DNA of 64,000 nt from a virus. Taxonomy: Duplodnaviria; Caudoviricetes. The notes under the pieces were generated by a model. It had not been told where the DNA came from. It did no database searches and was given only the letters and a program-made list of their open reading frames with translations. Numbering within the stretch: the stretch's first letter is position 1; each line of letters opens with the position of its first letter. Positions 8,505-35,082 of this stretch are shown piece by piece. The stretch spans positions 160,001 to 224,000 of IMG/VR virus record IMGVR_UViG_2974671799_000001; one strand, given 5' to 3'. The translations under genes and the position numbers were made by a program.

Positions 8505-9218
8505 ATGGAGCTAAAGATTTTAAACAAAGTACAACTATCAAAAGCATCCGATTTAAAATTAAATCGGATGCAAATAGAAGAGTCAATCAAACAACTAAAT
8601 CTAAGAAATGATTATGGTTTTTTCGTTCCAATCGGAACTGGAAAATTAACTAACTATATTGATTTAGATGAAATAGCTTTTATTGCTTATAATTTTAGAT
8701 TAATTGATGGATGGATTACAGCCGATTTAAGAGCATCTAAAGAAGTTTATGGTTACTTTATTGATGAAGCCATTTTAAATAGCTCAGATTGGATAAAAGA
8801 GCGTATAAAATTCATTCCTGAGTATGATAACGATTTGATTATTTGGTGGAATTTAGAAAATGTTCATAGTTCTAATAAAAAGAAAAAAGAACAATTATTA
8901 GATGAGCCTAAAAAGTCTATTATTTCAAATGGTCAAAAAATGCTTAAAATGAATTTTTGTTTCCTTCTACCAAAAAACTTTAAAGGTAGTTTGGATGATG
9001 CTTTTAATTATTTTGTTGAACAATATAAGTTGAAATCAGAACTTAGTGAAATTAATGAATATGACGATGATGTTAATGTTGATAATGACCATAATGATAT
9101 CATTTATAAATGGGCTAATCTTGCACAAAAACAAGGTTATAGGTTCTATTCAGAGTCGAGTTTAAATGAAATTGAAACAGATGAAAATGGTAAAATAATG
9201 AGTATCAATTCATTGTAA
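8505..9218 (+). CDS. hypothetical protein
   Basis: 237-aa ORF coupled to thyA. Confidence 0.75.
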   Translation: MELKILNKVQLSKASDLKLNRMQIEESIKQLNLRNDYGFFVPIGTGKLTNYIDLDEIAFIAYNFRLIDGWITADLRASKEVYGYFIDEAILNSSDWIKERIKFIPEYDNDLIIWWNLENVHSSNKKKKEQLLDEPKKSIISNGQKMLKMNFCFLLPKNFKGSLDDAFNYFVEQYKLKSELSEINEYDDDVNVDNDHNDIIYKWANLAQKQGYRFYSESSLNEIETDENGKIMSINSL

Positions 9219-9323: not shown

Positions 9324-10316
9324 ATGGAAGGACAAAACACACAAATCGAGCCTATTTTGGTTGAAAATCCTAATAGATTCGTTATATTCCCAATTCAACA
9401 TAATGATATTTGGGAAATGTATAAAAATCAACAAGCGATGTACTGGACGGCAGAGGAATTGGATTTACAATCAGACTTGAATGATTGGAATAACAAGCTT
9501 AATGATAATGAAAGATACTATATCAAACACATCTTAGCATTCTTTGCGGCATCTGATGGAATTGTAAATGAAAATCTTTGTGAAAACTTTGTTGCAGAAG
9601 TTCAATATACAGAAGCTAAATTTTTCTACAGTTTTCAAATGATGATGGAAAATATTCACTCTGAAACATATTCACTTTTAATTGATACATATGTTAAAGA
9701 TGAATTAGAAAAAGATAAATTATTTAAGGCAATCGAAAACTTTCCTGCAATAAAAGAAAAAGCTGAATGGGCTTTAAAATGGATTGAATCTCCATCGTTT
9801 GCTGAAAGACTTATTGCGTTCGCCGCTGTTGAGGGAATTTTCTTTAGTGGTGCTTTTTGTTCTATTTTTTGGCTTAAAAAACGTGGTCTTATGGCAGGTC
9901 TTACATTCTCTAATGAGTTGATTTCTCGTGATGAAGGATTACATTGTGACTTCGCAATACACTTGCATAAGAATCATGTTATTAATCAAGTACCTAAAGA
10001 AAGAATTACAGAAATTTTAGTTTCAGCATTGGATATAGAGCGTGGTTTCATTACAGAATCTTTACCAGTTAGTTTAATTGGTATGAACTCAAAATTAATG
10101 ACACAGTACTTAGAATTTGTTACAGATAGATTATTGACAGAGTTCGGATGTGAAAAGGTTTACAACTCTCAAAATCCTTTTGATTTCATGGAAATGCAAT
10201 CACTACAAGGTAAAACAAACTTCTTTGAGAAGAGAGTTTCGGAGTATCAAAAAGCGGGTGTTAAAAATAGCGCATTCGGTAAAAAAGATACATTCGATAT
10301 TGACTTAGATTTTTAA
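9324..10316 (+). CDS. nrdB: ribonucleotide reductase class Ia beta subunit
   Basis: [38 protein letters not shown] di-iron and tyrosyl-radical motifs. Confidence 0.97.
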
Positions 10317-13361: not shown

Positions 13362-13994
13362 ATGAAAGATATTTCAGTTTATATAAATGAAAAGTTAGGA
13401 AACTCAATAAATGAAGGTAAAAAAGATACTAAAATTGAGTATATCGTTAAAATGATTAAACATGAGTTTGGCTCAAAACACAATCTTAATGTTTTAGATT
13501 TTAATGATAAAGAAATTACTTTCGATATTTCAAACTTCAATGATGATAATAAAGTTCTTAAATGGGCAACTGGTATTCTTAATAGAATGTATGGCGATAA
13601 AAGGCGACCTAAAATGATGGATGCTATCACAAAAGATGGTAAATTAATCATCAATGTAAAAGATGCTAGTGTTAATGAAAGTGAGGAAATTGATGATGAA
13701 GGTAAGATTGTCGAGGCTGAACAGATAGACCCAAAAACACTTTATAAAAAAGCTAATAATGACCTTATGGTTATTCTTAGAGAATTAGGTTTAGGTGCAA
13801 CACCTAGAATTGATGAACTTTGGAGTGGTGTACAAGGATTACAAGTTGAGTGCAAAATCTCTTCTCATGTTGAATATCCAATGATTACTATGGAAAATAT
13901 GAAGGTTATATCTAAGTTGAAAACTGTTAGGTATATTAGTTTTAGAGACTTTCAACACGGATATTTCCAAGTTTACTTCAAGCACGAAAATTAA
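13362..13994 (+). CDS. putative internal head protein
   Basis: N-terminus MKDISVYINE...INE and internal VNES, similar to prohead-protease sites. Confidence 0.6.
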   Translation: MKDISVYINEKLGNSINEGKKDTKIEYIVKMIKHEFGSKHNLNVLDFNDKEITFDISNFNDDNKVLKWATGILNRMYGDKRRPKMMDAITKDGKLIINVKDASVNESEEIDDEGKIVEAEQIDPKTLYKKANNDLMVILRELGLGATPRIDELWSGVQGLQVECKISSHVEYPMITMENMKVISKLKTVRYISFRDFQHGYFQVYFKHEN

Positions 13995-31471: not shown

Positions 31472-31503
31472 TTTTGCAGGTAATTAGAAAAGTTATATAT
31501 TTG
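31472..31503 (+). promoter_or_regulatory. Bacteroidota-type promoter of the tRNA/ncRNA cluster
   Basis: TTTG at about 31473 and TAtaTTTG at 31496-31503, 16 nt before the first tRNA. Confidence 0.75.
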
Positions 31504-31519
31504 CATAAGTAATAACAAA

Positions 31520-31593
31520 GCCGAGTTGGTCGAGTGGTTAAGACGCAAGACTCTAAATCTTCGAAATCACGGGTTCGAATCCCGTACTCGGCA
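31520..31593 (+). tRNA. tRNA-Sup(CUA), amber suppressor
   Basis: GCCGAGT/ACTCGGC acceptor plus discriminator A; D arm GTC..GAC; anticodon arm CAAGA-CT[CTA]AA-TCTTC; T arm ACGGG-TTCGAAT-CCCGT; no encoded CCA. Confidence 0.88.
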
Positions 31594-31594
31594 C

Positions 31595-32031: not shown

Positions 32032-32110
32032 GGTTGTATAGCTCAGTTGGTAGAGCGTTCGCGGGTATATTACCCTCGAAAGGTCGCAGGTTCGAGTCCT
32101 GTTACAACCA
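32032..32110 (+). tRNA. tRNA-like RNA with elongated non-canonical anticodon arm, copy 1
   Basis: GGTTGTA/TACAACC-A acceptor; canonical D arm GCTC-AGTTGGTA-GAGC and T arm; anticodon arm TTCG-C-GGGTA-TAT-TACCC-T-CGAA. Confidence 0.8.
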
Positions 32111-32117
32111 CGAATTA

Positions 32118-32194: not shown

Positions 32195-32267
32195 GGTCTT
32201 GAAGTTAGTGGGTTTTAACACTATACGCGGAGTATAGAGGTCACAGGTTCGAATCCTGTCTTGACCA
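32195..32267 (+). tRNA. atypical tRNA with CGG at the anticodon position (Pro-like)
   Basis: GGTCTTG/CTTGACC acceptor with two T-T mismatches; CTATA-CG[CGG]AG-TATAG arm with G33; canonical ACAGG-TTCGAAT-CCTGT T arm. Confidence 0.6.
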
Positions 32268-32398: not shown

Positions 32399-32477
32399 GG
32401 TTGTATAGCTCAGTTGGTAGAGCGTTCGCGGGTATATTACCCTCGAAAGGTCGCAGGTTCAAGTCCTGCTACAACCA
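32399..32477 (+). tRNA. tRNA-like RNA with elongated non-canonical anticodon arm, copy 2
   Basis: Identical to 32032-32110 except two T-arm changes (TTCGAGT to TTCAAGT; G-T to G-C pair). Confidence 0.8.
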
Positions 32478-32509
32478 CAATTAATTTCTTAATTATAAAT
32501 ATAATAAGT

Positions 32510-33229: not shown

Positions 33230-33511
33230 ATGACAAAAGAAGTATTCTTAGAGCAAAACGAAGGCAAAATCATTGATTTTTACGCTGATTGGTGTAGTCC
33301 TTGTAAAGTATTAAAACCTAAATTAGAATCAATTAATGAAGATGATTCTGATTTAGAAGTGAATTTTGTTAACGTTGGTGAACAAGCTGAAATCGGTGCT
33401 ATGTTTAATGTTCGTTCAATCCCAACATTATTATATGTTAAAGATGGTGAGACTCATGTTATTACAGCTCGTGATGTTAACGGAATTAAGGCACAAGTAG
33501 AAGAAATTTAA
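33230..33511 (+). CDS. trxA: thioredoxin
   Basis: IDFYADWCSPCK active site and VRSIPTLL cis-Pro loop. Confidence 0.93.
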   Translation: MTKEVFLEQNEGKIIDFYADWCSPCKVLKPKLESINEDDSDLEVNFVNVGEQAEIGAMFNVRSIPTLLYVKDGETHVITARDVNGIKAQVEEI

Positions 33512-33531: not shown

Positions 33532-33969
33532 ATGAAGTATTTCTTAGTATCTATTGCACACCAAGTGGAAATTCCACAGGAAGATGCAAACAAAGACCCA
33601 AAAATTAAAACAAAGAAGGATAAAGTTTTAGTTGAAGCAGAAAATTATGGTGATGCTGAAAAACAATCTTATGAGTATGCTGAACAACACTCATTAAAAA
33701 CCTTTTCTGTTGAATCAATCACTATTAAAAACATTTCTCGTGTTTATGTTGATAAAGATTCTGTTGGTGAAAATTCTGCTTACTTTGATGTAACAACAAA
33801 GTATGAGTATGAAGATGATAAAGGTAAAACTAAAGTTGAGAAATCAAATGTTGTTATCGAAGCATCTAATTTGGATAGTGCATATAAATTCTGTTTAAAT
33901 GAATTTGAGGATGAGAAAATCCACAAATTAGAATCATCAGTTATTGTAGATACTGTTCTACAAGAGTAA
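33532..33969 (+). CDS. DUF4494-like protein (Bacteroidota family)
   Basis: Two internal repeats: KDKVLVEAENYGDAEK and YFDVTTKY...KVEKSNVVIEASNLDSAY. Confidence 0.6.
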   Translation: MKYFLVSIAHQVEIPQEDANKDPKIKTKKDKVLVEAENYGDAEKQSYEYAEQHSLKTFSVESITIKNISRVYVDKDSVGENSAYFDVTTKYEYEDDKGKTKVEKSNVVIEASNLDSAYKFCLNEFEDEKIHKLESSVIVDTVLQE

Positions 33970-34014
33970 AAAAATCACCCAATTGGGTGATTTTTTATTT
34001 TTCGACACTTTTTA

Positions 34015-34045
34015 TTTGGTTGTTCAGAATAAATCATTATATTTG
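34015..34045 (+). promoter_or_regulatory. Bacteroidota-type promoter for the Pth2-HD gene
   Basis: tttggttg at 34015-34022 and TAtaTTTG at 34038-34045, after terminator aatcaccc-aatt-gggtgatttttt. Confidence 0.75.
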
Positions 34046-34082
34046 TAACTCAAATTAATGTTTAACTTAAATTTTTTATATT

Positions 34083-35036
34083 ATGAAATAGATAACCAAA
34101 AATTCAAATCGTTCTAACAAGGTTGAGCAAAGTCAAAAATTTAGAATTATAACACGCTCAGATTTAAGTGTTGGTCAAGCTGTTGTTCAAACAGCCCATG
34201 TAGCCGCGGAATTTCAAATGAATTTCCCAACCGAATATGAAACATGGTTAAAAACAAATAGAAGTATAATTACATTTTCGGCAAAGAATGGTAAAGAACT
34301 TCTCGAATATGAGACACTCTTAAAATCAAAGGGAGTCCAAACCTATAGGTTCTATGAACCCGATTATAATCAAATAACGGGTATCGGAATAGTACCTAGT
34401 GACCAAGCTAGAAAAATGACATCATCTTTAAAACTTTTTAGACATACACAACAAGAAATGTATTTCGACGAGGTTACAAGAGATATGAGTCGTACCGAAC
34501 AAATGGATAACCTTTCCGTACTACAACATGGTGAAATGGTACACGACTATTATAAAATGATAGTTTCAAATCAAATGTGTAACCTTTCAAAATTTGAAAA
34601 AGTACCTAAATGGTTACTCGAAAATAAAGCGTATATTCTAAATGAATTGTCTAAATTTGATTTCAACGCAATCAAAGATTATCAAATAATGCATGATTTG
34701 GGTAAACCATACTGTATTCAAATTGATGAAAATGGTAGAAGACATTTCCCGAACCACGCGCAAGTTTCATATGATACTTGGAAAAAGTTAAATGGTGACC
34801 CTTTTGTTGGTAACTTAATACTTAATGATATGAAAATGCATACAATGAAGGCATCAGATATTGAAGACTTTATGAAAATAGAGGGTTACTTAATATTAAT
34901 GGTAACATCAGTTGCTGAATTATACGCAAATGCTGAAATGTTTGGTGGTTATGAATCAACTTCATTCAAAATTAAATTCAAACAGTTAGAAAAGAGAGGA
35001 AATGCTATCTTTAGAATCATAAATGAATCTAAGTAA
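34083..35036 (+). CDS. peptidyl-tRNA hydrolase 2 (Pth2)-like plus HD-domain fusion with in-frame TAG at codon 3
   Basis: ATG AAA TAG at 34083 is in frame (135 nt) with the listed ORF 34218; the intervening codons encode FRIITRSDLSVGQAVVQTAHVAAEF (Pth2 RxDL..G....QxAH motif), then FYEPDYNQITGIGIVP; C-half has QH...HDLGKP...HFPNHA HD motifs. Confidence 0.8.
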
Positions 35037-35082
35037 AAACAAACCCATCAAAAATTTGATGGGTTTTTCTAAAAAATTATAA

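Follow-up and report, generated by a model that had tools for sequence, protein, structure and literature searches.

The 64,000-nt stretch of phage DNA analyzed here (the window) corresponds to bases 160001-224000 of the virus record IMGVR_UViG_2974671799_000001, which has 234,670 bp and a G+C content of 28.7%. In this window, it was found that a gene for a fusion protein of a Pth2-like (peptidyl-tRNA hydrolase) domain and an HD phosphohydrolase domain starts with ATG AAA TAG and stays open in the same frame after the TAG. I call this arrangement of a start codon, a few sense codons, and an in-frame stop codon the gate. A gene for an amber suppressor tRNA with a CUA anticodon (tRNA-CUA) lies upstream on the same strand. 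Since the pairing of a gate with a suppressor tRNA is common to dozens of distant phages, the Pth2-HD protein is probably made only while the phage tRNA-CUA overrides the stop codon. Suppressor-tRNA-dependent translation of an enzyme that may be directed to tRNA 3′ ends is the likely explanation of the gate.

Gate anatomy and the choice of the start codon

The whole gene (34083-35036) consists of 317 codons, with UAG as codon 3 (Table 1). A standard gene caller lists a shorter open reading frame (ORF; 34218-35036, 272 aa), which is in frame with the gate and begins 42 codons past the TAG. The segment between the TAG and the called ORF reads ...FRIITRSDLSVGQAVVQTAHVAAEF. There is no in-frame ATG between the TAG and position 34218, the first ATG being located 42 codons after the stop codon. 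An earlier model-made reading of the letters alone (the sequence-only reading) had claimed the ATG-AAA-TAG at 34083, the 42 open in-frame codons, and the lack of an ATG before the called ORF, and each of them was found exactly as described.

Which ATG is the start codon? A start-context weight matrix was trained on 208 starts of this phage, and 1347 internal ATGs were scored for comparison. The gate ATG scores 4.89 bits, which corresponds to the 47th percentile of the 208 starts and the 99th percentile of the internal ATGs, and it has AAA at -14 to -12 like other starts of this phage. The ATG of the called ORF scores -15.2, which is under all 208 real starts, and the corresponding residue of the read-through product, M43, is not conserved among the relatives (alignment A2). 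The ATG at 34218 is probably not the true start.

The gated unit is framed as a single gene by the hairpins at 33969-33996 and 35041-35066. The sequence-only reading had placed a promoter at 34038-34045. These bases read TATATTTG and form the second half of a TTTG-N21-TAnnTTTG match at 34015-34045, a promoter-like pattern that also precedes the tRNA-CUA gene. The TTTG-N21-TAnnTTTG pattern has 22 matches in the window versus 7.3 +/- 2.8 in shuffled sequences, none of the 100 shuffles reaching 22. I take the TTTG...TAnnTTTG pattern to be the Bacteroidetes-type promoter consensus.

The predicted read-through product is a Pth2-HD fusion protein

The Pth2-HD fusion proposed by the sequence-only reading was revealed to be real by Pfam, sequence alignment, an AlphaFold2 model, and VIA-align. 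The model of the read-through product, built on 17 fused homologues, has a mean pLDDT of 89.9. Pfam PF01981 (PTH2) matches residues 19-116 with profile positions 5-115 of 115, at 32 bits versus the cut-off of 23. With Foldseek, residues 10-116 gave TMt values of 0.67-0.75 to archaeal and human Pth2 structures (1rlk, 2zv3, 3erj, 1q7s, and 1xty), and VIA-align superposed the Pth2-like domain on 1wn2 with a Z of 12.9 and an rmsd of 2.3 over 105 aligned residues. In the AlphaFold2 model, a strand (residues 17-22, FRIITR) and a helix (residues 27-44) precede the called start M43. Since strand 1 and helix 1 are encoded before M43, the called ORF is without part of the Pth2 fold. The N-terminal segment, which had been assigned to Pth2 from the letters alone, was thus modelled as strand 1 and helix 1 of this fold. 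The conserved residues in the 42-codon upstream segment are R22, D24, Q29, Q33, and H36.

The catalytic Lys of the canonical Pth2 G-K motif is absent, and the window protein has Q29 at this position. All four sequences of alignment A1 have Q there, while most of the fused relatives in alignment A2 have Y and the others have Q, T, or D. In the canonical D-A-G...T segment, the D and the T correspond to the acidic E89 and to T96 of the window protein. The sequence-only reading had called the protein a translation-rescue enzyme; this has become uncertain, given the Q or Y at the Lys position in the phage clade.

In the HD domain, the metal-binding residues H146, H201-D202, H222, D246, and H250 are invariant in the 17 sequences of alignment A2. 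The Pfam HD profile (PF01966) matches the window protein at 14.1 bits, under the cut-off of 22, and two homologues carry a precomputed PF01966. The nearest structure of model residues 64-311 in VIA-align is 3wfo_A, a class II tRNA nucleotidyltransferase (Z 14.1, rmsd 3.1, 165 aligned), although helical folds with a Z near 13-14 are at the edge of chance arrangements. The next neighbor is the HD-like domain of the β subunit of GlyRS (Z 11.3), and HD proteins of the GppA, PhnZ, PgpH, and YfbR types follow with Z values of 8-10.4, in agreement with an HD helical fold. A profile search also found the 3wf* chains around the HD motif, with a weak E value of 0.008.

The early stop codon is the majority state of homologous loci

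Is the early stop codon common in homologous genes? In the phage collection, a protein search yielded 32 records, none of which reached 60% identity, and a metagenome scan with a single protein gave only four distant loci. In total, 123 sources were collected from IMG/VR, metagenomes, three named cultured phages, and the window. Among them, 112 loci (the window included) have a Pth2 match on the + strand, and they collapse to 87 distinct 5′ regions. As many as 59 of the 87 have an ATG, zero to seven sense codons, and a TAG, without an in-frame ATG before the domain. Another four have a TAG gate with a later ATG, and three have a TGA gate. No TAA gate was found among the 87 regions. The remaining regions have ordinary ATG starts (13), lack the anchor motif (5), or are unclear (3). 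A sense codon at this position in the homologues would have spoken for a sequencing error or a recent nonsense mutation, and it turned out that the early in-frame TAG is the majority state. Since the arrangement recurs in 58 other distinct homologous loci, the gate is far beyond chance.

The number of sense codons between the gate ATG and the stop codon is two in 36 of the 62 gates with TAG or TGA, one in 16, three in six, seven in two, and zero or six in one each. The base 3′ of the stop codon is A in 50 gates and G in 12, and never a pyrimidine; a purine at this position favors suppression. A Shine-Dalgarno core lies at -18 to -4 of the gate ATG in 36/62 gates, compared with 1/62 in control windows 90 nt downstream and 8/62 in those 80 nt upstream. 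The gate ATG is thus a real start codon in the relatives, too, judging from the 36/62 versus the 1/62 of the downstream control.

The gate is also present in three cultured phages whose proteins have 25-32% identity and whose DNA was read directly. Yersinia phage fHe-Yen9-03 has ATG TCT CAC TAG ahead of an unannotated Pth2 frame. In Acinetobacter phage ME3, the gate is ATG ACT TAG, and the annotation places a tRNA "anticodon CTA" some 420 nt upstream. In Salmonella phage Arash, the gate is ATG CTG TAG, and the annotated "peptidyl-tRNA hydrolase" is just 50 aa long. Gated genes would be systematically misannotated, being short, split, or missing in these three phages. Gene calls may hide the gate in another way. 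Protein P0007 begins with MKNTQINK where locus L040 reads MKNT*INK, and 285 of the 303 residues are identical; the comparison indicates that the Q in such gene calls is a TAG. The Q in P0003 may stand for a TAG as well.

In genome collections, the nearest match is a metagenome-assembled genome (MAG) contig of Weeksellaceae (L137), which has the gated fused form (ATG TTG TAG) and a tRNA-CUA right after the gene. A Saccharibacteria MAG contig also has a gated form with a tRNA-CUA. The fused genes of Psychromonas and others begin with an ordinary start codon, and no suppressor accompanies them. Family members in Bosea (L141), Psychromonas (L145), Sphingomonas (L140), and Pseudomonas megaplasmids (L144 and L146) adjoin tRNA genes. 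These cellular or megaplasmid members are Pth2-HD fusions or HD genes, with a canonical G-K Pth2 motif and no suppressor tRNA, and the Psychromonas Pth2-HD family gene of L145 has an ordinary ATG start.

Stop codons and suppressor anticodons switch together

The CUA-anticodon tRNA that the sequence-only reading had noticed about 2.5 kb upstream was called by both ARAGORN and Rfam, 2489 nt upstream of the gate on the same strand. It has the pairs G1-C72, C2-G71, and C3-G70, a discriminator A73, and a 7-nt anticodon loop CU-CUA-AA. Reading of the UAG by an initiator tRNA was considered and rejected in view of the G1-C72 pair and an anticodon stem without a run of three G-C pairs.

Suppressor tRNAs were searched for with ARAGORN within +/-10 kb of each locus. 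A tRNA-CUA was found for 44 of the 59 TAG gates. The three TGA gates (L034, L055/L058, and L080) all have a tRNA with a UCA anticodon (tRNA-UCA), and none of them has a tRNA-CUA. Altogether, a suppressor is present in the locus of 47/62 gates, 85-4680 nt away (median, 1097 nt). The co-occurrence that the sequence-only reading had proposed as a check is therefore seen for both stop codons, each with its own suppressor. A maximum-likelihood tree was built from 80 Pth2 domains. In it, the three TGA rows are scattered among TAG rows, each in a different clade, and the starred branches force at least three changes between TAG and TGA. Since each of the three TGA rows has a tRNA-UCA, the tree indicates that a change of the stop codon was accompanied by a change of the anticodon on three occasions or more. 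Under free assortment, the observed 44:0 versus 0:3 has a chance of 1 in 16,215, a figure that is weakened by relatedness, while the tree restores three independent events. The window lies on a long branch in a starred clade of 35 rows, of which 33 are TAG-gated, one is TGA-gated, and one is ungated.

The phage genome is not recoded and uses the standard code. Among the ATG-initiated ORFs of 100 aa or longer in the whole record (n=240), the stop codon is TAA in 204, TAG in 28, and TGA in 8. Unlike in the code-15 type of recoding, TAG is not found in frame in many genes and is not spared as a stop codon, although the phage does encode a tRNA-CUA as code-15 phages do. Reading TAG as a sense codon does not meaningfully lengthen any gene other than the Pth2-HD gene. 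The claim that this phage is not globally recoded is thus borne out, with a single gene gaining from read-through. Scans of the record for early or internal TAGs between long open frames revealed no convincing second client for tRNA-CUA.

The HD partner gene

In most relatives, the Pth2 and HD genes are separate and overlap or abut each other in either order, while some have a fused HD-Pth2 gene. The distinct HD genes (n=89) include 25 in which an N-terminal ATG-x-TAG gate is unambiguous, 18 in which a gate is followed by a later ATG, and one TGA-gated gene (L080) next to a tRNA-UCA. In 16 others, a TAG occurs inside the gene, at about codon 25-41 of the alignment (codon 101 in L062). Another 17 resemble the window in being fused or open upstream. 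The fused Pth2-HD gene of the window needs one gate, and one gate is present.

In GAP32-like jumbo phages, a second in-frame TAG lies inside the HD gene, in the context LD[ST]G*GD. It was seen in L002 (1947-1949), L013, L014, L016-L018, L020, L021, and L025. The second in-frame TAG accounts for the annotation of the fHe-Yen9-03 HD gene as two fragments, g411 and g412.

Exceptions and alternative explanations

Several points weigh against suppressor-dependent translation. The evidence consists of sequences and their comparison. No sequencing run was found over the gate, one DNA run matching only 34623-34663 and 34794-34944, and no RNA run was among the matches listed. The Q at the position of the G-K Lys may mean an activity other than ordinary peptidyl-tRNA hydrolysis. 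In 34/62 gates, the stop codon is followed by ATT, ATC, or ATA, which are possible weak non-AUG starts. For the nearest relatives, the gate is deduced only from short gene calls (P0004 from MSIGQ..., P0005 from MNFPTEY..., and P0006 from MRFYEPDY...) and from the Q of P0003. One TAG-gated HD gene is in a locus with only a doubtful "tca" suppressor call by ARAGORN. Among the 59 TAG-gated distinct loci, 15 have no tRNA-CUA called by ARAGORN within +/-10 kb. Five near-complete records among these suppressor-less loci were examined further. In two of them, a tRNA-CUA is located at a distance from the gene. In G003/L105, the only candidate is an odd tRNA-like element, about 3.5 kb upstream, that has a CUA loop (L105 6488-6560). 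In G001 and G005, no suppressor tRNA was found in the whole near-complete records, and the syntenic slot of G001 holds a tRNA-Arg(CCG).

The intron mode of ARAGORN added only doubtful calls. A motif scan revealed odd CUA elements that closely precede the gate in L039, L040, L042 (around 8905-8990), L044 (around 9480-9565), L066, L081 (around 9860-9945), L093, and L105. They have a normal acceptor stem and T arm, and a 5-bp hairpin after a long linker replaces the D arm. They are missed by ARAGORN and lie below the Rfam tRNA cut-off. I regard these elements as leads, that is, candidate tRNAs. A complete GAP32-like record (L020) has a tRNA-Arg(CCG) at 13884-13959, in the syntenic slot of its relatives' tRNA-CUA; no suppressor was found in this record, and both gates are retained.

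Could the frame be translated without any suppressor? ATG AAA TAG might be a two-codon upstream ORF, and after release at UAG the ribosomes might reinitiate at ATA 34092 or at ATT/ATA 34143-34148. This improbable explanation survives best among the alternatives, since an ATT, ATC, or ATA follows the stop codon in the 34 distinct gates mentioned above (ATA in the window) and two near-complete gated genomes were found without a suppressor tRNA. However, the other 28 gates have AAT, AAC, GTT, GTA, ACT, GGC, ACC, ACA, GTC, or GTG, which are mostly non-starts, and no conserved start codon follows the gate stop, so that the non-ATG start which the sequence-only reading had named as a danger to its own proposal did not emerge. 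Reinitiation also leaves the absence of TAA from 62 gates of mostly A+T-rich phages unexplained, and it cannot explain the match of stop codon and anticodon in three independent clades or the internal TAGs around 40 codons into the HD genes.

It is somewhat less probable still that the gate is a sensor of release factor 1 (RF1), near-cognate host tRNAs reading the UAG when RF1 falls, as late in infection or under a toxin of host defence, and tRNA-CUA serving something else. Impaired RF1 had been the alternative raised by the sequence-only reading. Termination on very short peptides is slow, and some gated genomes lack a detectable suppressor, both of which would suit such a sensor. It fits poorly with a suppressor located at a median of 1.1 kb from the gate, with an anticodon that switches with the stop codon, and with the failure to find any other client for tRNA-CUA in this genome. 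Very improbable is the explanation that the called 272-aa ORF is the real product, practically an HD enzyme whose N-terminal part is a disabled stub, and that the frame before it is in decay or its TAG arose by a recent nonsense mutation or an error of assembly: gene callers chose this ORF (P0002 and P0005), phrog_14850 spans exactly it, and no reads matched over the TAG at 34089-34091, but its ATG has the poor score and unconserved M43 described above, the 42 upstream codons stay open at 28.7% G+C and encode conserved residues folding into the domain, and the early stop is shared with 58 other distinct loci.

Proposed mechanism and purpose

In the suppressor-dependent translation proposed here, ribosomes would initiate at ATG 34083 and, with RF1 alone, would end after fMet-Lys. 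When tRNA-CUA (31520-31594) is expressed, processed, and charged, an amino acid would be inserted at the UAG and the whole protein would be made. Sequence and comparison establish the gate and its conservation, the agreement of stop type with anticodon, the folds, and the start context. From these I infer that such read-through does occur and that the phage tRNA-CUA performs it. The gate would act as a lock, and the phage suppressor tRNA would be its key. With the stop at codon 3, failure would be cheap, costing only a dipeptide, and both the codon-3 place and the A that follows may favor suppression over termination. It is known from minigene work that the release factor is disadvantaged on a very short peptidyl-tRNA. 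Since the tRNA gene and the gated gene share a promoter-like motif, what the gate adds would be a requirement for tRNA maturation and not a delay in transcription. More tentatively, the enzyme may act on tRNA 3′ ends, with ester hydrolysis by the Pth2 domain and phosphoester hydrolysis by the HD domain.

What might the lock be for? My preferred guess is that the timing and the level of Pth2-HD synthesis are coupled to the supply of the phage's own tRNAs. Less probably, it may be a safety lock, with an enzyme that attacks host tRNAs appearing only once the phage tRNAs are in place. A self-referential circuit, in which the enzyme acts on the suppressor tRNA itself, on its aminoacyl or peptidyl ester, or on its 3′ end, is a bolder and unlikely case. 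If it were true, read-through would make the enzyme that limits or recycles the agent of read-through, and the system would be a tRNA homeostat with a prfB-like logic.

Comparison with known systems

To my knowledge, the suppressor tRNAs of standard-code phages have had no known client so far. In Xanthomonas phage XacN1, which has two CUA tRNAs, read-through of 18 annotated amber stops revealed no targets, according to its report (PMC5852040). I found that ORF364 of XacN1 (L149) is an HD-Pth2 fusion with an in-frame ATG AAG TAG ahead (region 1486-1509) and a GAGG 9 nt before this ATG. It is a candidate client of both CUA tRNAs, although the case is ambiguous with a second ATG four codons after the stop codon. 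The full-text literature searched, which was mostly without subscription journals and supplements, revealed no account of phage Pth2 or HD genes with such a stop gate.

The closest precedent is the stop-codon recoding of crAss-like, Lak, and other phages with suppressor tRNAs, in which TAG is read as Gln (code 15; 10.1101/2021.08.26.457843). There, a phage tRNA-CUA likewise acts in a standard-code host, genes with in-frame TAGs are completed once the tRNA acts, and recoding is proposed by Borges et al. as a post-transcriptional timing of gene expression. In contrast, the genome here is not recoded, and read-through is needed by only one gene, or by two in relatives with Pth2 and HD as separate genes. 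The stop codon lies at codons 2-5 and is not scattered through late genes, and the client is a tRNA-directed enzyme that adjoins the tRNA. Peptidyl-tRNA hydrolase is not mentioned in the text of Borges et al. (0 occurrences) or in that of a jumbo-phage survey (PMC13037316).

What is novel here is that, in a phage of the standard code, suppressor-tRNA-dependent expression would be confined to one cassette of a tRNA and an enzyme. Particular to the window is a single gate on a fused Pth2-HD protein in what is apparently a Bacteroidota phage.

Other early stop codons and minigenes are known. The prfB gene for release factor 2 escapes its early in-frame UGA by frameshifting (+1) and responds to its own product. 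The Pth2-HD gene shares with it an early in-frame stop in a gene of the translation apparatus, with expression set by competition at the stop; it differs in that the frame is unchanged and a separate tRNA gene would decide. The bar minigenes of phage lambda stand alone and act via peptidyl-tRNA drop-off. The gate has the same form of a start codon, one sense codon, and a stop codon, whereas a conserved 314-codon frame continues past its stop. The lambda-bar analogy of the sequence-only reading therefore stands as to form and extends no further.

As for the enzyme, the protein shares with Pth2/Bit1 (1wn2, 2zv3, 3erj, 1xty, and 1q7s) the fold (TMt about 0.7; Z 12.9) and a Pfam PTH2 match above the cut-off. 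It differs in the replacement of the G-K Lys (Q29), the fusion to an HD domain, its phage origin, and the stop gate. The best structural neighbors of the HD part, the HD/body region of class II tRNA nucleotidyltransferase (3wfo-3wfs, "tRNA processing enzyme") and GlyRS β (8ie2 and 7yse), are both enzymes of the tRNA acceptor end, and the Pth2-HD protein lacks the nucleotidyltransferase head domain.

A conserved amber lock and key of one or two genes would be a natural counterpart of engineered amber-suppression switches and a plausible first step toward whole-genome recoding. It would also link a Pth2-like and HD enzyme to phage tRNA biology, and the cultured phages make the pairing directly testable. 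Besides those described above, Cronobacter phage GAP32, Yersinia phage fHe-Yen9-04, and Serratia phage BF share this layout.

Host and neighboring features

The scarcity of Shine-Dalgarno sequences (4 of 209 ORFs in the window), the A-rich signal at -14 to -12 that this phage's starts have in their place, the enriched TTTG...TAnnTTTG pattern, and the DUF4494 gene point to a Bacteroidota host, and the phage apparently has such a host. A search of the phage collection, which does not include close relatives, for near-identical DNA gave no match. The positions of the features in the window are listed in Table 1.

Table 1. Features of the gated Pth2-HD locus and its surroundings (window coordinates)
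Feature	Position	Strand	Basis or remark
Promoter-like site TTTG-N-TAnnTTTG, 17 nt upstream of tRNA-CUA	31473..31503	+	Pattern search; motif type as before the gated gene
tRNA, anticodon CUA (amber suppressor), elongator type	31520..31594	+	ARAGORN; Rfam RF00005, 65.2 bits
DUF4494 gene	33532-33969	.	Ended by the terminator-like hairpin
Terminator-like hairpin with T run	33969..33996	+	Closes the DUF4494 gene and sets the gated gene apart
Promoter-like site TTTGGTTGTTCAGAATAAATCATTATATTTG, 38 nt upstream of gate ATG	34015..34045	+	Pattern search
Gate ATG AAA TAG, then A (ATA)	34083..34091	+	ATG 34083-85, AAA 34086-88, TAG 34089-91
Read-through coding region, 314 codons + TAA (35034-35036)	34092..35036	+	Sequence; AlphaFold2 mean pLDDT 89.9
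Pth2-like domain, residues 10-116 of 314	34119..34439	+	Pfam PF01981, Foldseek, VIA-align
ATG of the called ORF, probably no start	34218..34220	+	Weight matrix -15.2; M43 unconserved
HD phosphohydrolase domain, residues ~121-311	34452..35024	+	Alignment A2, VIA-align, profile match
Hairpin right after the stop codon, core CCCATCA...TGATGGG, then TTTTTC on +	35041..35066	.	Hairpin listing gives - strand

Two genes upstream of the gated gene, a phage thioredoxin gene lies at 33230-33511 (Pfam E value 1.9e-17). Downstream of tRNA-CUA are two near-identical tRNA genes of about 80 nt (32032-32111 and 32399-32478), which ARAGORN called Ile(UAU). Their anticodon arm is 15 nt, compared with 9 in the Rfam model, with an extended stem UUCG-C-GGG / CCC-U-CGAA around the loop UAUAUUA. 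Between them, at 32195-32267, lies a weak tRNA-like element (37 bits in Rfam, uncalled by ARAGORN) with a mismatched acceptor stem and a loop CGCGGAG without U33, which is perhaps a decayed tRNA.

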